A DNA stretch of 64,000 nt from Akkermansia muciniphila (GTDB lineage Bacteria > Verrucomicrobiota > Kiritimatiellia > RFP12 > UBA1067): assembly GCA_945870145.1 (NCBI GenBank), contig CAMBQV010000001.1:495-64494 (forward strand), read 5' to 3'. This document shows, piece after piece, positions 1,759 through 62,660 of the stretch. How positions within the stretch are numbered: the first letter of the stretch is position 1; every line of letters starts with the position of its first letter. The notes below the pieces were generated by a model, which had not been told where the DNA came from, ran no database searches, and was given only the letters and a program-made list of their open reading frames with translations. The translations under genes were made by a program, and so were the position numbers.

Positions 1759-1933
1759 GCAGCGGCAGTTGGCAGTGGCAGTTGGCAGTTAGTAGACTCC
1801 GTCAACACTAGGGCTACGGAGGGCAGGCGAAAAGCCCGAAACTGTATTTGTCTCTGAGTGCGTTGACGACCAGTGAGCGACGCCGCCCCGCAAGTGAAGC
1901 TAACTGCCAACTGCTACTGCCGACTGCTACTCT
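1759..1933. repeat. intergenic hairpin with arms made of tandem GCAGT(N)GCAGT units (arms 1759-1797 and 1899-1933, about 100-bp spacer, no ORF inside)
   Basis: gcagcggcagttggcagtggcagttggcagttagtag is the imperfect reverse complement of agctaactgccaactgctactgccgactgctactc. The same unit family recurs at 4994-5030, 5434-5479 and 56226-56256. Confidence 0.6.
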
Positions 1934-2964: not shown

Positions 2965-3726
2965 ATGAGCGGTCATAGTAAATGGGCAACGATTAAGCAT
3001 AAAAAGGGCGCGGCAGATGCCAAGCGCGGAAAAATCTTTTCGAAAATCGCCAAGGAAATGACGATTGTCGCTAAAAACGGTGGCGGTGACCCAGGGAACA
3101 ACCCGACGCTCCGCACGTTGCTCGCCAAGGCAAAGTCCGTGAACATGCCGAATGATAACATCGAGCGTGCTATCAAGAAGGGAACTGGCGAACTGGCAGC
3201 AGACGCACTCGAAGAAATTACGTATGAAGGTTACGCGAGTGGCGGGGTTGGATTGGTCGTTAAGGTTCTGACCGACAACAAGAACCGCGCAGCCTCAGAA
3301 GTTCGAAACATCTTTAAAAAGAATGGTTCCGATTTTTCAGGTCAGGGTTCTGTTTTCCGTAGCTTTGAACGCAAGGGAACTATCATGATCCCAGCAGCCG
3401 CAGACCTCACAGAAGACAAGATCATGGAGGTCGCTTTGGGCGCAGGGGCGGATGACCTTTTGACTGAAGAGGGTGGTTTCACCGTCACCTGTCAACCGAA
3501 TGCCTTTGCTGAAGTCAGTGCGGCCATCGAAGCCGCTGGTATTGCGTTTGACCGCGAAAATTCGCAGGTCGGACTAGTCCCTCTGACAAAAGCAAATGTT
3601 AAAGATGTCGCCGTCGCCAAGGCCGTCAATAAGTTCGTCGGAATGCTGGAAGAGCACGATGACGTACAGGATGTCTACTCCAACATGGAAGTTGATGACT
3701 CCATCGCCGACCAAGTGGATGAATAG
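2965..3726 (+). CDS. yebC: YebC/PmpR family DNA-binding transcriptional regulator
   Basis: MSGHSKWATIKHKKGAADAKRGKIFSKIAKE... full-length YebC signature; 253 aa. Confidence 0.9.
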   Translation: MSGHSKWATIKHKKGAADAKRGKIFSKIAKEMTIVAKNGGGDPGNNPTLRTLLAKAKSVNMPNDNIERAIKKGTGELAADALEEITYEGYASGGVGLVVKVLTDNKNRAASEVRNIFKKNGSDFSGQGSVFRSFERKGTIMIPAAADLTEDKIMEVALGAGADDLLTEEGGFTVTCQPNAFAEVSAAIEAAGIAFDRENSQVGLVPLTKANVKDVAVAKAVNKFVGMLEEHDDVQDVYSNMEVDDSIADQVDE

Positions 3727-3865
3727 CGGAATAGCTGGAATAGCGGAATAGCTGGAATAGTGGAATACTGAGAAGCTCCGCAATCGGTGTACAGTTGTCT
3801 GTACTCCATCGTATTGAGCTTTTTAAAATATTCCTACATTCCACTATTCCAACATTCCATAAACA
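3721..3865. repeat. intergenic hairpin with arms of tandem GGAATAG(C/T) units (3721-3770 and 3828-3865), no ORF inside
   Basis: gaatagcggaatagctggaatagcggaatagctggaatagtggaatactg pairs with ttcctacattccactattccaacattccat. A related one-sided copy is at 27037-27078. Confidence 0.55.
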
Positions 3866-4993: not shown

Positions 4994-5479
4994 CAGTTGG
5001 CAGTGGGCAGTAGCAGTCGGCAGTGGCAGTTTTTATTACAACTTGTCTGAGCAGAGAACACCAAATTTCTCGGGGTGATCCATCATATATCCCAAAAGTT
5101 TTCCAACATCTCCATAACGGGAAGCGAGTTGCTCAAATTTTTCTGGTGTTATGTAACCGCAATCCTTTGCAAAGCGCAACCAAACACCTGTCTCACTTGC
5201 TTCGCCATCTGCATCTGTAAGTTTCGATAAGTAATGCTTCAGATAACTTCTCTTACGATAGGCTTCAGCCGTATTCGCGCATACCGAACGAGATGAACGT
5301 CGAATCTGATCAGTCAGCGAATACCTTTCCTCAACTGGAAAGTTTTTTGACAATTCAAAAATCTGCATTGCGCCTTCGTAAGCTAATTCAAAAACCTTTA
5401 ACCCTTCAACACCTTTTTGCATCTCTATCCTTTCACTGCCGACTGCTACTGCCAACTGCTACTGCCGACTGCTACTGCC
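4994..5479. mobile_element. IVS-like hairpin element: GCAGT-repeat inverted arms (4994-5030 and 5434-5479) enclosing a four-helix-bundle protein gene
   Basis: Left arm cagttggcagtgggcagtagcagtcggcagtggcagt is the reverse complement of right arm cactgccgactgctactgccaactgctactgccgactgctactgccc. The enclosed gene belongs to the 23S-rRNA intervening-sequence protein family. Confidence 0.5.
5036..5422 (-). CDS. four helix bundle protein (23S rRNA intervening-sequence protein / DGR Avd-like family, PF05635/TIGR02436-like)
   Basis: MQKGVEGLKVFELAYEGAMQIFELSKNFPVEERYSLTDQIRRSSRSVCANTAEAYRKRSY... The ERYSLTDQIRRSSRSVxANIAE motif is diagnostic. The track ORF extends to 5455 into the repeat; ATG at 5422 preferred. 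Confidence 0.8.
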   Translation of the reverse strand: MQKGVEGLKVFELAYEGAMQIFELSKNFPVEERYSLTDQIRRSSRSVCANTAEAYRKRSYLKHYLSKLTDADGEASETGVWLRFAKDCGYITPEKFEQLASRYGDVGKLLGYMMDHPEKFGVLCSDKL

Positions 5480-5484
5480 CTCCC

Positions 5485-6391: not shown

Positions 6392-6429
6392 ATTGCCTTA
6401 TTGCGTGATTGCCTTATTGCCTTATTGAA
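6392..6429. repeat. tandem ATTGCCTTATTGC repeats upstream of kor operon
   Basis: attgccttattgcgtgattgccttattgccttattg. The same unit recurs at 36531-36613. Confidence 0.5.
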
Positions 6430-21950: not shown

Positions 21951-22186
21951 TTTAACGCGAAAACCGCAATAAGAAGGGTGGTTATCACGTCTGCCTCACG
22001 CTGAATACAGCACGGCAGAACGGATAACCACCCAGATAAAGTGACTTTCATTTTCATCAGCAAAAAACGAGTTTTTTGCTGATGAAAATTAGTATGATTC
22101 AGCGCAAATGTCCGCTCCGCCGTCCATGTATTCATGGGTGAGGCGGGCGTGACATTTGCGCTCTTCTTTGCGGCTTTTGCGTTAAA
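21951..22186. mobile_element. MITE-like composite repeat, copy A (about 25-bp TIRs TTAACGC(G/A)AAAACCGC...; internal hairpin modules)
   Basis: 5' tttaacgcgaaaaccgcaataagaag versus 3' ctcttctttgcggcttttgcgttaaa are inverted. Internal 60-nt module gcgcaaatgtccgctccgccgtccatgtattcatgggtgaggcgggcgtgacatttgcgc is shared with copy B at 29830-30068. Confidence 0.6.
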
Positions 22187-24557: not shown

Positions 24558-26804
24558 TTAGAGTCCTGTGTGAAAGGTGCGCGCAATCACTTCATCCTGC
24601 TGTTTGCGGCTCAAGCGTGTAAAGTTGACTGCATACCCGGAGACGCGAATGGTCAACTGCGGGAAACGTTCCGGATGGGCCTGCGCCTCCAGCAGTTGTT
24701 TCCTATTCAAGACATTCACATTGAGGTGATGGCCAGCCTGTCCGAAATACCCATCGAGAATCTGAGTCAGGTTGGTCGTCTGTTCTGGAAGGACAGGACC
24801 GAGGCTCTCGGGTGTGATGGTAAAGGTGCAACTGATGCCGTCACGGCAACTATCATACGAAATGCCCGCCACAGAGTTCAGCGAAGCCAAGGCTCCGCGA
24901 CCATCGCGATTGTGCATGGGATTGGCCCCGGGCGCAAAGGGCTTACCCGCAGGGCGTCCATCGGGGGTCGCGCCTGTCGCGCGTCCATAGACCACATTCG
25001 AGGTGATGGTCAATACGGAGAGGGTGTGAATGGCATTGCGATAGGTGGAATTCTTTTTCAGTCCTTGTTCAAAGTCTTTGACCAACTCTTGCGCCATGCG
25101 ATCCACGCGCTCGTCATCATTCCCGTAACACGGGAACTCCCCCTCGATCCTGAAATCAATAGCCAGTTCACGGTCATCCTGCACAGGCGTCACGCGGGCA
25201 AAGCGAATGGCGCTCAAGCTGTCCGCCATGACCGAGAGACCTGCCAGTCCGAAGGCCATGAAGCGTTCCACGTCAGTATCATGCAGGCTCATCTCCAACT
25301 TCTCATACGCATACTTGTCGTGCATGAAGTGGATAATGTTCATGGTATTGACATAGAGCTCGCAAAGCCAGTCGGCATAGAACTGGAATTGCTCTTTCAC
25401 CTGCTCATAGTTTAGCTTTGCTCCTGTCAGCAATGGACGCTCCGGCGCAATCTGAAGTCCAGAGGGTTCATCCCTGCCTCCATTGATCGCGAGCAGCAAC
25501 ACCTTGGGCAAGTTACACCGTGCGCCGAAGTACTGCATCTGCTTGCCGATCTTCATGGCCGAGACGCAACAGGCGATGCCGTAATCATCACCGTATCGGG
25601 GACGCATCAAGTCATCATTCTCATACTGAATCGAATCCGTCTCGATGCTGACCTTCGCGCAATACCTGCGAAACGCGACGGGCAACTGCTTCGACCAGAG
25701 GATCGTGAGATTAGGTTCCGGTGCATGTCCAAGCGTATAGAGCGTATTCAGGAAGCGATACGTGGTCCGCGTCACCAAGGTACGGCCATCCTCGCCCATG
25801 CCTCCCAACGCCTCTGTAATCCACATCGGATCCCCGGCAAAGAGATCATTGTATTCGGGTGTCCGGAGCTGACGCGCCATTCGTAACTTCATCACAAACT
25901 GATCCACCAGTTCCTGTGCCTGAGCCTCCTGAAACAAACCATTTCGCAGATCGCGCGCAATATAGATGTCCAGAAATGAACTCACACGGCCGAGGGACAT
26001 CGCTGCGCCATTCTGCTCTTTAATAGCACCTAAGTAGGCGAAGTAAACCCACTGGAAAGCCTCTTGGGCCGTGCGGGCAGGAGTGGATATATCCAGTCCA
26101 TACGCAGCCGCCATCTCTTTGAGTTTCTGGAGGAAATCCATCTCCTTCCACAACTCCTCACAGCGCCGGATCGTCTCTTCGGTCATGGGTGTCGCAGCAA
26201 GAGTGTCTTTGTCCTGTTGCTTATCTTTGATCAACGCGTCAACCCCGTACAGTGCGACACGCCGGTAATCGCCAATGATGCGTCCGCGGCCGTAGGCATC
26301 CGGGAGGCCCGTGATATACCCATACTTTCGCAAGAGCAACATGGTTTGGTTATAGACATGAAACACGCCATCATTGTGTGTTGTCCGATAAGCGCACGCC
26401 CGTTCCACCTCTTCACCCAGCTTGTATCCATAAGCCTCGCACGCCTGGCGCGCCAGTCGCAGACCGCCAAAGGGATTAACGCCACGGCAGAGCGGCTTCT
26501 CAGTCTGCAGCCCCACAATCAGCTCATTCTCGCGATCCAGATACCCCGGCGTATATGTCAGGAGGGAGGAGACCACATTGACATTCACATCAAGAACGCC
26601 CCCTTTTGCAGCCTCCTGGCGCAAGAGCTCCTGAAGCTTCAGGTTCAAGGCCTGCGTACGGGGGGTCGGTCCGGAAAGAAAGGACTCATCACCCCCATAA
26701 GGGGTCACGTTTTGCTGGATAAAATCGCGGACGTCGATGGCGTGTTGCCAACCGCCGGAATGGAAGCCTTGCCAGGCTGTTTCACATACTGCCGAACTCT
26801 TCAT
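24558..26804 (-). CDS. pflB: formate C-acetyltransferase (pyruvate formate-lyase)
   Basis: 748 aa; glycyl-radical motif RVSGYAVNF near the C-terminus; PFL fold throughout. Confidence 0.9.
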
Positions 26805-27036
26805 GCTGGGCGTACTCCTTGTCTCTTATGACATTGATCAGGGCGCCCAGGCGGTCGGCAGTTAAACGATACAGTCCCTCGTGGTGTCAACCCACACACA
26901 ACATGTCGTTGCGTTTCCGCCAGTCCTGTATCGAAGAAATTGTTTTAAAGTGTACCTGATTTTCTCTTCGGATGCCACTCTTTTTAGGTGACAACCGCGG
27001 AACCATGATTTATCCTTAACCCCGACGAAAGATAGA

Positions 27037-27078
27037 CTGGAATATTGGGATGCTGGAACAATGGAATACTGGAAGAGG
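27037..27078. repeat. tandem (C)TGGAATA(T/C)TGG units just upstream of P-type ATPase start
   Basis: actggaatattgggatgctggaacaatggaatactggaagagg; same unit family as the 3721-3865 hairpin. Confidence 0.4.
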
Positions 27079-29829: not shown

Positions 29830-30068
29830 TTTAGCGCAAAAACCGCTAAGAAGAGCTCAAATGCCTCGCCCGCCTCACCCGTGAATACACGGACGGCGGA
29901 GCGGGCATTTGAGCTGGCAATAAATCTTCTACATTTAATTACTGTGAACACTAGTCATGAGTAATTTAACGCTTTCTTAAACTTCCGCGAGGCTATCCAT
30001 TCCGCCGTCCATGTATTCATGGGCGAGGCGGATGAGATAGCCTCGCAAAATTTGCGGTTTTTGCGTTA
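29830..30068. mobile_element. MITE-like composite repeat, copy B
   Basis: TIRs agcgcaaaaaccgctaagaag and gcaaaatttgcggtttttgcgttaag. Contains the 60-nt hairpin module twice, once inverted (29851-29912) and once direct with a different stem (29984-30045). Lies between convergent ATPase and cstA ends. Confidence 0.6.
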
Positions 30069-36530: not shown

Positions 36531-36646
36531 ATTGCCTTATTACCGCTTCGCTTTCGGCGTTCGCCTAATGGTTACGGCTACGTAACGAGCCTCATTGCCT
36601 TATTGCCTTATTTTTAACATTCGTGTGGTTCGTGCCATTCGGATGC
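36531..36646. repeat. ATTGCCTTATT repeats plus dispersed 34-bp repeat (inverted copy of 62586-62616)
   Basis: attgccttatt at 36531 and 36592-36613. cattcgtgtggttcgtgccattcggatgct (36617-36646) is the reverse complement of agcatccgaatagcacgaaccacacgaatg at 62584-62613. Confidence 0.45.
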
Positions 36647-55294: not shown

Positions 55295-55341
55295 CGTCTC
55301 CCCAACTAACGCACTAACGCAATAACGCACTAACACACTTC

Positions 55342-56076: not shown

Positions 56077-56114
56077 AGTTCTCTCCTTAACCTATAACTT
56101 GGCTAAATTATCTC

Positions 56115-56275
56115 GCACAAAGCCACGAAGCCACAAAGAATATGAGACTGAAGCTTCATTTCTTAACTTTGTGGCCTTGAGTCTTTGTGCGATACAGTTA
56201 TTCATTCGTTTATTCCCGGGTCTTAACTGCCAACTGCTACTGCCGACTGCTACTGTGCCGCCCCCAGGCGGCACG
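56115..56275. repeat. intergenic hairpin with CCACAAAG-unit arms (56115-56139 and 56166-56190), then a GCAGT-family tandem repeat (56226-56256) and GC hairpin GTGCCGCC-CCCA-GGCGGCAC (56254-56275)
   Basis: cgcacaaagccacgaagccacaaag pairs with ctttgtggccttgagtctttgtgcg. ctgccaactgctactgccgactgctactg belongs to the same family as 1899-1933 and 5434-5479. Confidence 0.45.
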
Positions 56276-56276
56276 A

Positions 56277-57074
56277 TTACCCCTGATATCCAAAAATGCG
56301 TGAGATTTTCAAAGCCCCGTCCCGAATCTGTTCACCAATGCTTGGATACTGGCTCGGCGTGACACGATTATCCGGACCCGTCACCCAGATCGCCGCAATC
56401 GGAAACCCGTTACGGTCAAAAATCGGGGCCCCTAAGCAGTAAATGCCAGCGTACTCCTCGCCATGATCAATCGAATACCCTTTTTCGCGCACAGTCGTAA
56501 GCTCCTGCTGAAACGCCTTGAGCGAGGTGATCGTGTGATTGTTGTACTTCACAAACTTGATATTCTGAATTGTGCGATCCCGTTGATCCTCTGGCAGAAA
56601 TCCCAGCATTGCCTTGCCAGGCGCAGAGGCATGGAGACCGATCCGGTGTCCGGCAGTCAATGAAAACCGAAAGAGATGCGAGCCCAAGACGCTTTCGAGC
56701 ACAATGATTTCCATCGCATTCAGCACGCCCAAGGCGACTGTATCCTGCAAGGCATCACGTAGCTTACGCATGGTGGGCAACGCATTGCCCACCAGGTCAA
56801 TCTCCGAGATGGCCTTCTGACCCAACATCAGCAGCTTCATCGTATGACGAAAGGCTTTAGTCTGCGGATTGCGGATCAGATATCCCGCCTTTTCGAGGCT
56901 CAGCGTCATGCGAAACACACTGGCAGAGGGGCATTTCAACGCCTCCGCAATCTCATTTTGGGTCTTGCCTTCAGGATGTTCCGCAAGGTATTCCAAGATG
57001 GCCAAGCCCCGTTCGAGTCCGGGCACCGAATAGGTCGTATCAGATTTCTTTTTTTTACTGCTTGTCGCCGTCAT
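56277..57074 (-). CDS. IclR family transcriptional regulator
   Basis: LERGLAILEYLAEHPEGKTQNEIAEALKCPSASVFRMTLSLEKAGYL HTH plus C-terminal IclR effector domain. ATG at 57074 (MTATSSKKKK) overlaps the upstream gene end by 20 nt. The track ORF extends to 57194. Confidence 0.75.
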   Translation of the reverse strand: MTATSSKKKKSDTTYSVPGLERGLAILEYLAEHPEGKTQNEIAEALKCPSASVFRMTLSLEKAGYLIRNPQTKAFRHTMKLLMLGQKAISEIDLVGNALPTMRKLRDALQDTVALGVLNAMEIIVLESVLGSHLFRFSLTAGHRIGLHASAPGKAMLGFLPEDQRDRTIQNIKFVKYNNHTITSLKAFQQELTTVREKGYSIDHGEEYAGIYCLGAPIFDRNGFPIAAIWVTGPDNRVTPSQYPSIGEQIRDGALKISRIFGYQG

Positions 57075-60015
57075 AGATCTTCTTTCCGGTTCGAATAGCT
57101 TCATAGATTTTACTTTCAGCCGCAAGCCGTTCCTGATAACGGCGCTCACGCACCAGATCCGCTTCACAAGGCTGAAAGCCAGGTGCGTCAGCATCTGGCT
57201 TTTCGGCGAGACGCTTTTTGCCTTCGCTGATCAATGCGACAGCTTTCTTGTAGTTTTCGGAAAGTGGATCCATCTTGCCAAGCATGCGGCTCTTCTCCGA
57301 ACGCGTAAAGCTGATTTGTGAACGCTGCCGCGCACCATGACTGCCGGCAACCTTGCCACCTGTCAATCCTGAAAGGGTTTTGAGCTCACCACCCGTGAGT
57401 GGTGAACGGCCCCCCGGATTGCTCGGATAGGCACACTCATAGCGCGGATAGTAGGGCGCATTGATATCTACCCACGTAATAAGCCGGTCCATCTCCTCTG
57501 TCGACAACTTCACACCGTGATGACCCTTCTTCAGTACCTGAATCAGCGGCGAGAGGTGACTACCCCAACTGTAGGCTTCCTGAAGTTCAGCGAGTCCGCC
57601 CCCTACACACTTGACCATGTTCAAGGCCCAGAGATCCACATACGAGGTGGCAAAATAGACATCGCGATCCCCTGCGAGGTTGAGTTTTTCGCCTTCCTTC
57701 TTTCCATAGTCGTGACAAGTGATGCAGTGCTTGTTGAAGACAGGCTGGACCTCCTGCTGAAAACTGAAGAGGCGTGCGGGTCCGTACCACCCATTCAACT
57801 GATCCGCTTTGCGTGACAACGCCTTGGGCTTCTGCTTCACGGGCGGAATATCCCCTACTCGGTTCTCATGGCAACCCACACAGCCGTAGGTCTCGCCGGG
57901 TTGCACATAGATGCCTGAGCGCATAGACTGGATCAGCATGCCATCCTTGTCGAGCGCCTGAAAGTAAAGGTAAGTGTTGCCGGGTGCTGCGAAATAGGCG
58001 CTGCCATCGGCCTCCACAGGCACTATCCCTAAGATCCGCTTATTCTCAAAACTATGCCAGTTCATGGCGGCTGCCTGCGCTCCTTGCCCTCCCCAATCGC
58101 CCTGAGACCAGCTACGTTTCTCAGGGGATTCGACCACGCGTAAAAATTTAATCGCCCCTGGCTCTACACCCTTCATATGTGTCCCGATGGCCGCATTCTG
58201 AACATAAAAATAACCCGCTCCATTTACATCGGAGAAATTACGGCGCGTCGGTTGCACAGCCGGCTTTTTGCGCGGACGTATCGGCATCGGGTCATAGCAG
58301 CCGGGAGCTTCCGCAACCACCAACACCTCATTGCCATGGAGGTCTAAATAATAGATGCCCATCTCCTCGCCCTTGCCCGTCATACGGGAACAGAGAAAAT
58401 GTTCATCATCTAAAGGGATGGGGTCTTCGTATTTAATCTTGAGCCTGCCTGGCGAATCAAAGTTCTGTCCCTTCGTCGAGATCTGTTCGCGAAACTCAAC
58501 CGGCCATGTCCTGAGTACAGGCTCCTTGCCGTCCACACCCTTTGAACGGTCAATGAGGCCCAAGGCGCCCCAGGGACGGTCATGGCAAGCCGCAAGGACT
58601 GCGATACAGAGATTGGCCTTTGAAAGGGTCCGCGCATCAATCACGCCGCCGGGGCTTGTGGTGTTGTTGCCCCAATAAATGGCATGGCCTGTTCCATCCG
58701 GGTTGCAGACCCAAAGCCCCTGGGCGTCCCCGAAGTTGCGATCTACATACTCCCAACGGTCATAGAGGATACGTCCATCGGGCATTACGGAGGAATGACC
58801 CTCAAACAAGGTGGACTTTCCGATCTGGTGGATGTTTGCACCGTCTGGCTCCATGCGATAGAGATTGCACATGATGTGGCGGTTGCACATGCAATATTTG
58901 GGTTCACGCGAGCTGGAGAAGAGGATGTGGCCGTCCTGCAACCAAATCGGATCAATATCCGAGACTTGCGGCTTCGAGGTGAGCTGTTTTGCCTCCGGCT
59001 TCTCAAGTGAAAGCGTATAGATGTGATAATCATCTGTCACGCTCTTGCGCATTGAAAAGACAACCTTCTTCGCATCAAAGTCCACGTCCGGGTCACGGAC
59101 CGTCATTCCTTTGCCTGGCGCAAACAGTGTTGTGACCATGTTGGAGCGCACATCCAGAATCTTCAAGGCGCCCTCGGTATCATATTTTGGGGTATTGATC
59201 TCCTGAGTCTGAAACATCGTCTCGGTATTGTGATGATCGGAACGATACTGTTTGCGTGTGACAAAGAGGATGGGGGCACTATTGACAATCGGATTCAGCG
59301 TCACAAGCGCCTTGCGCTGGAAAGACGCGAGGTCCTGGGTCGTCTCCAACTCCTGAAGCAGTTGAGCAGCAGGATACTGCGGATAGAGCCGTCCCAACTC
59401 CTCAATCGCGGCCTTCGTCGGCGCCAAGACCTTGGCACTCAAGGCAGCCTTCTGCTGGGCAACGCGCTCCGCCATCTGGGTCGCATCAACTTTTCCGGAG
59501 CAGGTGATGTCATCCACGATAATATGTCCCCACCCTCCTGTAGCATGATCGACGACGCGGAAAAAGAGCGGCTTGCCCAGAGCTTCAGCCGGTACTGTCC
59601 AGCTGACCTGCTCCATCACCTGGTTGTCTTTACCACGGGCATAGAGGATCTCCTTTCCGTCGCTCGTGCAGAGCGCCACATAGACCTCCTGAGCGCTCCC
59701 CCCGCACACGCGCAACTTAACCGTGGGCGAATCGAGCATGACGATTGGCGATTCAATGATGCCCGTAAAGTCATCACTAGGGCCGTTCTGTGTATCCAAG
59801 GTCGAGAGAAAATAGGTGCCGGCCTTACCAAAAGGCGTTGCAGTCTGGTACTGCGTCTTGCGGTCGCTGATCAACTTGCCAAAACTCCCCTCAACAATCT
59901 GCCAACCCTGCAAATCGCCAGTCTCAAAACTAAAGTTTACCTCCGCTGCGCTGCAGACCTGCGCGAGGCAAAACAAGACGCTCATGGCCAGTACCACTTT
60001 TTTCATAAGTAACAT
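57055..60015 (-). CDS. secreted multidomain protein: N-terminal ConA-like/LamG-like domain, TolB/PD40-like beta-propeller region, C-terminal di-heme cytochrome c region (two CXXCH; PSCyt1-like)
   Basis: Signal peptide MLLMKKVVLAMSVLFCLAQVCSA. CVGCHENRVGD and CITCHDYGKKEGEKLNLAGD, the latter matching the Planctomycete cytochrome C (PSCyt1) CxxCH...L.L.D pattern. Propeller-like repeats DGHILFSSSRE and DGRILYDRWE. Confidence 0.6.
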   Translation of the reverse strand: MLLMKKVVLAMSVLFCLAQVCSAAEVNFSFETGDLQGWQIVEGSFGKLISDRKTQYQTATPFGKAGTYFLSTLDTQNGPSDDFTGIIESPIVMLDSPTVKLRVCGGSAQEVYVALCTSDGKEILYARGKDNQVMEQVSWTVPAEALGKPLFFRVVDHATGGWGHIIVDDITCSGKVDATQMAERVAQQKAALSAKVLAPTKAAIEELGRLYPQYPAAQLLQELETTQDLASFQRKALVTLNPIVNSAPILFVTRKQYRSDHHNTETMFQTQEINTPKYDTEGALKILDVRSNMVTTLFAPGKGMTVRDPDVDFDAKKVVFSMRKSVTDDYHIYTLSLEKPEAKQLTSKPQVSDIDPIWLQDGHILFSSSREPKYCMCNRHIMCNLYRMEPDGANIHQIGKSTLFEGHSSVMPDGRILYDRWEYVDRNFGDAQGLWVCNPDGTGHAIYWGNNTTSPGGVIDARTLSKANLCIAVLAACHDRPWGALGLIDRSKGVDGKEPVLRTWPVEFREQISTKGQNFDSPGRLKIKYEDPIPLDDEHFLCSRMTGKGEEMGIYYLDLHGNEVLVVAEAPGCYDPMPIRPRKKPAVQPTRRNFSDVNGAGYFYVQNAAIGTHMKGVEPGAIKFLRVVESPEKRSWSQGDWGGQGAQAAAMNWHSFENKRILGIVPVEADGSAYFAAPGNTYLYFQALDKDGMLIQSMRSGIYVQPGETYGCVGCHENRVGDIPPVKQKPKALSRKADQLNGWYGPARLFSFQQEVQPVFNKHCITCHDYGKKEGEKLNLAGDRDVYFATSYVDLWALNMVKCVGGGLAELQEAYSWGSHLSPLIQVLKKGHHGVKLSTEEMDRLITWVDINAPYYPRYECAYPSNPGGRSPLTGGELKTLSGLTGGKVAGSHGARQRSQISFTRSEKSRMLGKMDPLSENYKKAVALISEGKKRLAEKPDADAPGFQPCEADLVRERRYQERLAAESKIYEAIRTGKKIYDGDKQ

Positions 60016-60097
60016 CCTCTTTTATTGATGAAAAGATGGTACACCGATTACTCTAAGAATTCAAGCGGATTTTTGTCTCAAGACGAATCAAATATCA

Positions 60098-61160
60098 CGT
60101 CTGATCGATTGAGCGACTGAACGATTGAACGAGGAAACCCAAACTGGCGGCCTTGGACCAAGGAACAGCCGACCTACTTTGTTTCCACATTGCGAAGGCC
60201 GTTGCACTGAGGATATTTTGAGCACCCCCAGAATTCGCCTCCCGCATTCTTGCCGGCTTTTGCTTTCCGCTTACGCATGGGCGCTCCACACTCTGGACAC
60301 ACAGGCGCCGCCTCCTGACCAGCCAAGTTCTGACGGCGAGCCACCGAAAGCTTCTCCCTAAAGCCACCCTCTTCCCTAAATGTTTTCCCTAATGATTCGA
60401 GTTGCCGATTGAGCATCGTAATAGCTCGCTCGATCATAATGAGCAAAGCATTTGCAACCACCACATCATCTTCCGCATCTAACCACTGGACAAATTTCTT
60501 TCTCTGCGTAAGAACATGCCGGCAAGCATCGTGTAGCACATCATCGCCATACTCGGCTCGGTCGAGCTTGAGTGAAAAGACCTGCCTCGACATCTCCGTT
60601 TGCTTAGACCACGGCACCTGATTGAGTTTCATCAACCAGTTTAAGTAATCACCCTGTAACTCTGCAAAGGATGCACGGGCTACATCAATTAATTTCATCT
60701 CACTTTCCTTAGATGTCATGCCACGTGAAGAACCTTCTGCAATATTTGCCACACCTGAGCGCGCAGCTTGCGTCATCTGATCGTATTGCCGTCCTTTCGG
60801 ATCACTTTTGAATGTCAGGAAAGTTTCACAAAAGCGTTGTGTTCCCAACTGAATGAGGTTGGCCATCACCCATGAGTCGAGCCTGAAATGGCCGACCGTG
60901 CCGCCGAACATGCCCATTGTCACTCCTTATTTTCGACTGACCGATTAAACGACTGATCGATTGAACGGAACGACCCACGCTCCGTTTTTCGCTCTTTTTT
61001 CGAAGTATTTCAAAAGCTCGCACTTCAGACAAGCCCATTTTTATGTTCACTCGTCTTTAGCGCGTATTTCCTTAATCGTTCAGTCGATCAGCCATTCAGT
61101 CGATCAGTCGTCTCCCTCACACTCGTTCAGTCGCTCACTCGATCAATCGTTCAGTCGCTA
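60098..61160. mobile_element. IVS-like hairpin element: CGATTGAACGACTGA-family inverted arms (60098-60132 and 61074-61160, extra direct copy 60926-60968) enclosing a four-helix-bundle plus zinc-ribbon gene
   Basis: cgtctgatcgattgagcgactgaacgattgaacgag pairs with aatcgttcagtcgatcagccattcagtcgatcagtcg...cgatcaatcgttcagtcgc. Confidence 0.45.
60174..60923 (-). CDS. four helix bundle protein (Avd / 23S-IVS protein family) fused to C-terminal topoisomerase-type C4 zinc ribbon
   Basis: QMTQAARSGVANIAEGSSRGMTSKESEMKLIDVARASFAELQGD matches the 4HB ANIAEG motif. C-terminus CPECGAPMRKRKAKAGKNAGGEFWGCSKYPQCNG matches the zf-C4_Topoisom pattern. Confidence 0.7.
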   Translation of the reverse strand: MTMGMFGGTVGHFRLDSWVMANLIQLGTQRFCETFLTFKSDPKGRQYDQMTQAARSGVANIAEGSSRGMTSKESEMKLIDVARASFAELQGDYLNWLMKLNQVPWSKQTEMSRQVFSLKLDRAEYGDDVLHDACRHVLTQRKKFVQWLDAEDDVVVANALLIMIERAITMLNRQLESLGKTFREEGGFREKLSVARRQNLAGQEAAPVCPECGAPMRKRKAKAGKNAGGEFWGCSKYPQCNGLRNVETK

Positions 61161-62587: not shown

Positions 62588-62620
62588 CATCCGAATAGCA
62601 CGAACCACACGAATGAAAAA

Positions 62621-62660
62621 CATCGAACATTCAACATTGAACGTTGAACGTTGAACTTTT
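62621..62660. repeat. tandem (CA)TTGAACG units
   Basis: catcgaacattcaacattgaacgttgaacgttgaac; related to the repeats flanking the 60174-60923 gene. Confidence 0.4.

Follow-up and report, generated by a model that had tools for sequence, protein, structure and literature searches.

A zinc-ribbon four-helix-bundle gene and its repeat arms

We analyzed a 64,000-nucleotide (nt) stretch of DNA, here called the window, that comprises positions 495 to 64,494 of the forward strand of contig CAMBQV010000001.1 from an Akkermansia muciniphila assembly (GCA_945870145.1; Kiritimatiellia, RFP12, UBA1067 in GTDB). Between genes for a GFO/IDH/MocA oxidoreductase and an HZS_alpha-domain protein lies a minus-strand gene that encodes an S23p-type four-helix bundle (4HB) followed by a 4HB suffix domain and a topoisomerase-I-type C4 zinc ribbon. 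The gene is enclosed by arrays of short tandem units, the arms, and we refer to gene and arms together as the zinc-ribbon cassette. Its parts are:

60097-60136 (-): arm C, downstream of the gene; on the gene strand, four TCGNTCA(N) octamers oriented like those of arm B, with arm A's outer half as the complementary sequence
60174-60917 (-): gene for the 247-amino-acid protein with S23p-type bundle, 4HB suffix domain and C4 zinc ribbon
60923-60928 (-): Shine-Dalgarno sequence AAGGAG, 5 nt before the ATG at 60917, unpaired and just 3' of arm B
60934-60968 (-): arm B, upstream and proximal to the gene; its four TCGNTCAG octamers immediately precede the Shine-Dalgarno sequence, repeat arm C in direct orientation and are complementary to arm A's inner half
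60969-61075 (-): spacer of about 107 nt, the loop of the inner hairpin; conserved with locus L001 and partly with L002, with predicted internal structure
61076-61111 (-): arm A1, the distal upstream arm's inner half; CGA(C/T)TGAN octamers on the gene strand, pairing with arm B
61113-61157 (-): arm A2, the distal upstream arm's outer half, pairing with arm C and closing the whole cassette

In the list of open reading frames (ORFs) for the window, this gene runs from a GTG start over 60174-60923 (-) and has 249 codons. The ATG at 60917 is the likely start, since AAGGAG precedes it by 5 nt and the closest homologs are 247 residues long and begin MGMFGG. The original prediction, made from sequence, was that a 4HB core is joined here to a topoisomerase-type C4 ribbon, and profile searches agree. 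The NCBIfam 4HB model TIGR02436 scored 29.5 bits (cut-off 24) and the Pfam model PF01396 (Zn_ribbon_Top1) scored 36.4 bits over residues 209-246 (gathering score 32), while the Pfam bundle model PF05635 reached 28.4 bits, under its gathering score of 33.8. Precomputed PF05635 annotation is present on many, not all, homologs. The suffix domain, C-terminal to the bundle at residues 154-199, matched TIGR04258 with 58 bits (cut-off 40). Helix 2 carries a signature of the RS-x-S-(I/V)-x-x-N-I-A-E-G type (ARSGVANIAEGSSR), and in an alignment of 16 homologs residues A52, R53, S54, G55, N58, A60, E61 and G62 are invariant, as are the four cysteines C207, C210, C232 and C238 (numbering of the 247-residue protein). 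A monomer predicted by AlphaFold2 from the 16 homologs (mean pLDDT 82.7) is helical to about residue 202 and ends in three short strands. Its best Foldseek matches in the PDB were two solved S23p proteins, 2gsc (XCC0516; E = 5.9e-3, TM-score on target 0.66), which a profile search also matched weakly, and 2rld (BT_0352). By this model, the fold of the bundle is S23p-like. Pfam, NCBIfam and PADLOC revealed no transposase, recombinase, nuclease or other catalytic domain.

The fusion had been put forward as an undescribed architecture. It is instead a known, large and strongly conserved family that TIGR04258 covers and that NCBI (and JGI) name "four helix bundle suffix domain-containing protein", with homologs in Lentisphaeria, Kiritimatiellia and Verrucomicrobiota. 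A protein search returned 5,250 matches; the top 120 were all full length, 59-97% identical and annotated with PF01396. Species-representative genomes hold at least 524 loci of the family, many of them in Bacteroidales, and several metagenome-assembled genomes (MAGs) carry two paralogs each. Mean column identity in the 16-homolog alignment is 72%, and identity across phyla is 55-65% with many invariant residues, a pattern that speaks for strong purifying selection across phyla. The family is absent from IMG/VR viral contigs and from phage records. Plasmid carriage of the fusion is essentially nil, the sole match being a distant suffix-domain protein on a Prevotella replicon. On this replicon (locus L171; Prevotella nigrescens NZ_CP082843.1), nonamers with a CTAG/CCTAGG core occupy 3140-3225, after a RefSeq suffix-domain gene that has no zinc ribbon and no evident upstream array.

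Across 85 loci of the family, we found no conserved gene neighbor except an HZS_alpha-like gene in 9 of them. In the window, a large secreted protein with an HZS_alpha domain in its middle is encoded immediately downstream of the cassette (57055-60015, minus strand). The nine loci (for example L001, L002, L004, L008, L009, L014 and L015) have cassette identities of 59-97%. The adjacency could be due to chance, as HZS_alpha proteins form a big paralog family in the Planctomycetes-Verrucomicrobia-Chlamydiae (PVC) group, or could reflect a weak functional link.

The arms are arrays of TCGNTCAG-type octamers with period 8 or 16. TRF and a repeat finder placed them at about 60097-60132, 60934-60967 and 61076-61157, bearing out the three arm positions of the original prediction. 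Arm A is inverted relative to B and C, such that the arms form convergent pairs; the outer pair, A2 and C, is 83% complementary over 36 nt. Arm B is 5 nt from the Shine-Dalgarno sequence and arm C lies 38 nt past the stop codon. With up to two mismatches allowed, the degenerate two-unit pattern TCGNTCAGTCGNTCA has 14 matches in the window against 2.15 expected. All 14 fall within arms A, B and C, and none of 100 shuffles reached this number. The layout A...B-gene-C is kept, with changed units, in the syntenic relatives L001 (97% protein identity), L002 and L003 (83%); the units in L002 are CGACTGAC, four times. Relative to L001, arm A2 is a 34-nt duplication. The arms, including arm C in L001 and L002, are better conserved than the flanking noncoding DNA, which diverges. 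Rfam models gave no match to the arms, either at gathering threshold or at E <= 5.

The upstream region is predicted to fold strongly as sense RNA (-90.4 kcal/mol, z = -6.9, versus -61.4 for antisense). Arms A1 and B form a stem of about 37 base pairs with a 107-nt loop that leaves the Shine-Dalgarno sequence free. In the minimum-free-energy fold of the 1086-nt sense RNA of the cassette, arm C (60097-60136) pairs with 61113-61150 in arm A2 and so closes the cassette. Both in the window and among its close relatives, predicted folding is much stronger for the sense strand than for the antisense.

Repeat cores follow the protein subfamily

A second 4HB gene in the window, of the classical kind, has the same arm-gene-arm layout, as the original prediction had noted. 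Its repeat unit, GGCAGT, occurs at three loci in the window:

5000-5480 (-): sister cassette; classical 4HB gene 5036-5422 (128 amino acids, PF05635 101 bits) inside inverted GGCAGT-type arms, which on the sense strand are (GGCAGTN)n at 5434-5480, upstream of the gene, and (NACTGCC)n at 5000-5031, downstream of it
1759-1931 (+): GGCAGT hairpin without a gene, 107-nt loop, between two co-directional genes
56225-56256 (-): orphan GGCAGT arm

A tblastn search of the loop of the gene-less hairpin (1793-1899) with the zinc-ribbon fusion detected no 4HB remnant; the classical 4HB protein was not used as a query.

We compared arrays in two sets of loci. The zinc-ribbon set consists of 85 loci from PVC phyla and Bacteroidales, with arrays of period 6-20 called near if within 200 nt of the gene. 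The classical set consists of 80 loci from a metagenome scan with the window gene 5036-5422, near meaning within 150 nt. The two sets compare as follows:

Array density near the gene versus elsewhere: zinc-ribbon 3.7/kb versus 0.38/kb; classical 4.9/kb versus 0.41/kb
Loci with at least one near array: zinc-ribbon 67/85; classical 68/80
Core density upstream: zinc-ribbon, TCGA 25.5/kb; classical, CAGT 24.4/kb
Core density downstream: zinc-ribbon, TCGA 24.1/kb; classical, ACTG 21.0/kb
Core density far from the gene: TCGA 5.5/kb; CAGT 3.0/kb and ACTG 3.0/kb
Core spacing: zinc-ribbon, mostly 9 nt (8-10); classical, 6-7 nt

The association is specific to the subfamily. Near arrays carry TCGA 76 times versus CAGT 3 times at zinc-ribbon loci, and CAGT 65 times versus TCGA once at classical loci. 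At the 80 classical loci the arrays are strictly polar on the sense strand, with (GGCAGTN)n upstream and (NACTGCC)n downstream. Arrays far from the gene and without a gene of their own also carry the cognate core (31 versus 2 in the zinc-ribbon set, 16 versus 0 in the classical set), and solo arrays of the same flavor cluster near the gene.

The complementarity of the arms is private to each locus. Arms matched the other arm of their own locus better than arms with the same core at other loci (19.9 versus 11.7, p = 3e-11; 27.0 versus 13.2, p = 7e-10). The original prediction had assigned each 4HB gene its own repeat unit. This is so for the variable positions and the period, which are locus-specific and matched between arms; it is not so for the core, which belongs to the protein subfamily (TCGA every 8-10 nt, or CAGT/ACTG every 6-7 nt) rather than to the gene. 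Since own arms match best and cores do not cross families, the idea of private stems stands as a subfamily core with locus-private positions and period.

It is hardly credible that simple repeats generated by slippage came to lie beside a small gene by chance. Tandem repeats do arise easily by slippage, and unit numbers differ in close relatives, as seen in the 34 nt that separate the window from L001. This explanation is contradicted by the shuffles, by conservation in relatives, by the cross-locus controls and, over 165 independent loci, by how enriched, polar and core-specific the arrays are.

Within the zinc-ribbon family, most PVC homologs have TCGA-core arrays on both flanks, 10-40 nt from the start and stop codons, with a core every 8-10 nt. 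Each flank consists of forward units followed by reverse units and thus makes a hairpin of its own, and one flank is also complementary to the other. The Bacteroidales homologs have ATATCGAN or ATAACGTN octamers. For paralogs within one MAG (L010 and L038, L028 and L039, L014 and L026), unit flavors differ and track the protein clade.

In the Bacteroidales loci with a recognizable -7 box (TAnnTTTG), the box lies 13-32 nt upstream of the array in five loci and further upstream in two. It is never found in the interval from array to ATG, which puts the array within the 5' leader: wherever a promoter could be recognized, the array lies between promoter and ribosome-binding site (RBS).

At Bacteroidales loci, a second, classical 4HB gene lies beside the zinc-ribbon gene (L050 4904-5395 and 6067-6096; L049 5123-5558). 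Its heptamers, AAGTACA / CATTGTA / TTGTACT, differ from the CGAAATAT arrays that belong to the zinc-ribbon gene, some 1 kb distant, and those around the classical gene in L050 have a GTAC core. In L045-L051, the CGAGATAT arrays that flank the zinc-ribbon gene also occur in the next spacers (L051 3724-3867, 4926-4977 and 5678-5712), where they punctuate apparent kdgK and eda genes.

The association extends to cultured cyanobacteria. All six 4HB genes that we inspected on their plasmids are flanked by short tandem-unit arrays, and in five the arms are inverted. The inverted arms are of the (GCAGGGGA)n / (TCCCCTGC)n type in four Nostocales and of a GGAGAG type in Leptolyngbya; around the Oscillatoria gene, the arrays on either side point the same way. 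Among plasmid records with classical 4HB homologs, 21 of 22 are cyanobacterial, and 17 are from heterocystous Nostocales (13 Nostoc). The Nostocales are the group in which short tandemly repeated repetitive (STRR) elements, known in cyanobacteria since 1990, were first described.

Two further ideas about the units were considered. A hint of a pentamer in the number of units per arm was dropped, as exact-core chains mostly have 3-5 units with no clear mode. The notion that period-8 units supply stop codons in all three frames fits some arrays, with TGA, TAG or TAA every 8 nt, and does not fit period-9 or GGCAGT arrays.

Known relatives and a proposed role

Of the two closest known counterparts, the first is the intervening sequence (IVS) found in 23S rRNA of Coxiella, Leptospira, Brucella and Haemophilus. 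In the Coxiella IVS, RNase III cleaves a 28-bp terminal inverted-repeat stem that encloses an S23p ORF, and the start codon is preceded by GACAGAT heptamers in three or four copies, a number that varies among strains (PMC4990558). The window cassette shares the S23p-family ORF in the loop of a terminal inverted-repeat stem, since A2 and C enclose the ORF in the predicted fold, and it shares with Coxiella the tandem short units just before the start codon. It differs in lying between protein-coding genes and not in helix 25 or 45 of 23S rRNA; Rfam detected no rRNA in the window. The window protein is also twice as long, with suffix domain and zinc ribbon, and its arms are octamer arrays in nested double stems.

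The arms themselves resemble a second group of elements. STRR sequences of Nostocales are 7-bp tandem repeats that form intergenic hairpins of unexplained function (PMC2670836). Xanthomonas campestris has 186 GGGAATC arrays, among them 70 convergent pairs; in X. axonopodis most of the corresponding arrays lie within transcripts, with positions largely conserved between both species, and Nostoc has G-rich arrays of GGGGA(C/T)T (PMC4692102). Neither paper mentions a protein partner or a link to S23p or 4HB proteins (PMC2670836, PMC4692102). The window arms belong to this class: they are intergenic convergent units near ORF ends, often in hairpin-capable pairs, with a period of 8 here and 6-10 in relatives. 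The Xanthomonas heptamer is contained in the PVC unit GGGAATCGA. They differ in period (8 in the window, 8-10 across the zinc-ribbon family, against 7), in host (PVC phyla and Bacteroidales) and in being tied to a gene family. The original prediction had overlooked these arms' STRR/heptamer class, the layout shared with the IVS and its S23p ORF, and the window hairpins that lack a 4HB gene.

Three other systems are more distant. Avd, the accessory protein of diversity-generating retroelements (DGRs), is a pentamer that acts on a template RNA together with the DGR reverse transcriptase. PF05635 proteins resemble Avd (PMC10053308), and the bundle of the window protein is of this homologous fold family. 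Avd lacks suffix domain and zinc ribbon, and tandem-unit arms are not known for it. No reverse transcriptase gene adjoins the cassette; a template/variable repeat pair was not searched for. RAYT/REPIN systems, made up of repetitive extragenic palindromic (REP) sequences and their associated tyrosine transposases (RAYTs), share with the cassette a gene flanked by its own hairpin-forming repeats, dispersed repeat copies without a gene, and pairing of repeat type with protein clade. RAYTs are HUH/Y1 transposases and REPs are single palindromes; the window protein has no recognizable transposase domain, and its arms are tandem arrays. TRAP and HutP, which have no homology to the window protein, offer an analogy, as oligomers that read one short core per subunit from spaced cores in a leader RNA. 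The locus is thus not an rRNA IVS, a DGR or a RAYT/REPIN system; it works most like an IVS and resembles RAYT/REPIN in logic.

We consider it an even call that the locus is an IVS-like, co-inherited cassette in which the gene for an S23p-type zinc-ribbon protein lies between transcribed STRR-like arms, with the protein probably recognizing these arms. In this model, the arrays would be transcribed with the gene as its 5' leader and 3' trailer, and nested stems would form, A1:B just before the free Shine-Dalgarno sequence and A2:C closing the cassette. The stems would bracket the mRNA, either as substrates for double-strand-specific processing or as stabilizing ends. The protein is likely an oligomeric, Avd-related nucleic-acid binder with an added zinc ribbon that could bind single- or double-stranded nucleic acid. 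It would recognize the core repeated at 8-10 nt intervals (TCGA or TCG) in its own arms and in nearby solo arrays of the same family, and in this way regulate its own expression and perhaps that of neighbors tagged with an array. Gene and arms would be inherited and transferred together. For the window organism, we infer that the arms are transcribed, that the stems form in vivo, that RNase III would cleave them and that the protein probably binds the repeats.

Several observations weigh against this model. There is no overall bias in folding energy between sense and antisense strands across the family. Mismatches in arm-arm alignments are mostly uncompensated, and those compatible with G:U pairing are equally frequent on both strands (65 versus 65; 90 versus 91), so that no RNA-strand signature emerges; this test is uninformative or negative for selection at the RNA level. 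Long-range pairing across a translated 750-nt ORF is a prediction of the folding model only. The TCGNTCAG unit is confined to the zinc-ribbon locus within the 64 kb. A scan for sigma-70 promoters and intrinsic terminators gave no terminator-like site at the locus and one promoter-like match, at chance level. Finally, many window arrays with other units precede ordinary genes in places that have no 4HB gene close by, and arrays could therefore be a general host feature. Because a family-wide strand signal is absent, several modes of action stand: the arms may act as an RNA stem, as a DNA cruciform or operator array, or as oriented units recognized in single-stranded form.

The lack of RNA-strand bias in the mismatches would fit a view of the arms as double-stranded DNA operators, bound cooperatively for autorepression, with the hairpin potential a by-product of converging units. 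The omega repressor, which binds contiguous heptads on pSM19035, provides a precedent. Palindromic 4-bp cores occur in several subfamilies (TCGA, also CTAG in Prevotella nigrescens and GTAC in L050), DNA-binding proteins are known to carry zinc ribbons of this type, and the distance of 13-32 nt from the Bacteroidales -7 box would allow a bound protein to block transcription. However, arrays are likewise present past the stop codon and at many promoterless sites, the core of the classical family is non-palindromic and strictly polar, and an operator would not need locus-private complementarity between arms about 0.4-1 kb apart. We regard operators as a distinctly improbable account.

The arrays without a 4HB gene bear on another explanation, that arms are generic STRR-type cis-elements of the host which work without the 4HB protein, as mRNA-stabilizing, processing or terminator-like hairpins or as slippage-prone spacers, and that 4HB genes merely land or stay in hairpin loops. 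The window has at least ten array loci of at least six families, most of them beside ordinary genes, for example YebC, LptF/G, YicC, deoC-like and URO-D genes, and the CGAGATAT arrays punctuate a Bacteroidales kdgK-eda operon. The abundant, transcribed arrays of Nostocales (STRR) and Xanthomonas (GGGAATC) have no known protein partner (PMC2670836, PMC4692102), and the arms of Nostocales 4HB genes resemble the G-rich Nostoc heptamers. Set against this, the core tracks the protein family across phyla (TCGA in both PVC phyla and Bacteroidales), and the protein clade within a genome, and not the host. Arrays are enriched tenfold at the gene with strict polarity relative to it, and a purely structural hairpin needs no conserved 4-nt core. 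We therefore consider generic host elements unlikely. Arrays are a genome-wide intergenic feature; what distinguishes the 4HB genes is their enclosure in matched, inverted arrays of one family.

The IVS-like, co-inherited cassette may be an instance of something broader. We tentatively suggest, and hold it to be possible but on the doubtful side, that S23p/Avd-like proteins are the missing partners of STRR-type hairpins, each clade reading its own 4-5-nt core every 6-10 nt from a gene enclosed in its own repeats, with the solo arrays beside ordinary genes as targets. If true, this would amount to a widespread, unrecognized layer of post-transcriptional or transcriptional control, or to a system for dispersing repeats, and the 23S rRNA IVS would become one special insertion site of a more general cassette. 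Two old orphans would be joined, the S23p or "four helix bundle" family and the STRR-type hairpins, which are abundant, transcribed and unexplained. To our knowledge, the S23p/4HB family, with tens of thousands of members and solved structures, has no function assigned outside DGR Avd. The specific, polar and clade-matched association at 165 loci from several phyla, and in cultured cyanobacteria, makes both orphan questions testable. The value of the locus thus lies in the arm layout and the gene-repeat link, not in the fusion itself. In the searchable literature, which is incomplete, we found no link between 4HB genes and tandem-repeat arrays outside the rRNA IVS; a prior description is possible.

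Possible cassette movement and other arrays in the window

Close homologs of the classical cassette are found in unrelated genomic surroundings. A gene for an 83%-identical classical 4HB protein lies in a cassette of about 490 nt between Wzy_C and GHMP kinase genes of a polysaccharide operon, its arms abutting the stop and start codons of the neighbors, and a 75%-identical homolog adjoins an exosortase gene. For the zinc-ribbon cassette, homologs of the neighboring GFO/IDH/MocA gene at 75% and 68% identity have no cassette beside them. The unrelated contexts and the cassette-less homologs fit horizontal movement of gene and arms together. These two homologs did not provide a clean empty site, as their neighborhoods are rearranged and no junction can be defined. 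No target-site duplication was visible at the inspected boundaries, and no genome held near-identical copies of a cassette. Strain-level copies of the classical cassette are stable: five contigs are identical except for a small difference at the outer edge of the upstream arm.

These findings can be read differently, as those of a mobile, or once-mobile, selfish cassette akin to RAYT/REPIN systems or to pairs of autonomous elements and MITEs (miniature inverted-repeat transposable elements). The arms would then be terminal inverted repeats and the solo hairpins non-autonomous or decayed copies; the 4HB protein would aid mobilization or maintenance, and the association of gene and repeat would reflect co-transfer and not regulation. 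Mobility of the IVS with its S23p ORF was proposed earlier (Ralph and McClelland, 1993, in the account given by PMC4990558). The compact inserts at 83% and 75% identity inside unrelated operons, the pairs of paralogs in several MAGs, the lack of a conserved neighbor across 85 loci other than HZS_alpha (9), the GFO homologs without a cassette, and the gene-less hairpins, orphan GGCAGT arm and same-flavor solo arrays near the gene all agree with such an element. Yet the cassette encodes neither a transposase nor a recombinase or nuclease domain, and PADLOC defense models matched neither 4HB protein of the window. The missing target-site duplications and near-identical intragenomic copies, the positional stability of nearly identical strain-level copies, and the absence from IMG/VR and phage records and near absence from plasmids likewise count against it. 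Strong purifying selection would be unusual for a decaying selfish gene, and heptamer arrays are positionally conserved between Xanthomonas species (Rehm et al., PMC4692102). On balance we think a selfish cassette rather unlikely, if a little less so than generic host elements.

Overall, the window holds about ten array loci of at least six unit families, roughly one per 6 kb, and arrays of the other families mostly follow a stop codon directly or immediately precede the RBS of an ordinary gene. At 3721-3767 and 3829-3859, GAATAGCG-type octamers form a hairpin with no 4HB gene inside; its first arm begins inside the stop codon of a YebC/TACO1-family gene and its second ends about 20 nt before the RBS of an LptF/LptG-family gene. 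At 27036-27074, the RBS of a 913-residue ORF is closely preceded by an array with a GGAAT core, related to the GAATAGCG type. One unit family, ATTGCCTT = GCCTTATT (AATAAGGC on the sense strand), occurs at both 6392-6427, about 20 nt upstream of the start of a YicC-like endoribonuclease gene, and 36589-36612. Three array loci belong to yet other families: at 55305-55339, ACTAACGC is present 4.4 times immediately ahead of a deoC-like gene's RBS; at 56106-56199, CACAAAGC units form a hairpin; and at 62619-62656, AACATTG is present 5.4 times before a URO-D gene.

Two other kinds of noncoding element occur in the window. REP-like palindromes, inverted pairs of 20-36 nt with the motif AGC(G/T)CAAATG...GGCGG / CCGCC...CATTTG(A/C)GCT, lie at 21976-22033, 22101-22162 and 29854-30053, with several copies nested at the last site. 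A full-length ZMP/ZTP riboswitch (Rfam RF01750; 55.4 bits, gathering score 39) occupies 26838-26937 on the minus strand, in the noncoding gap just upstream of a 748-residue ORF (24558-26804, minus strand).

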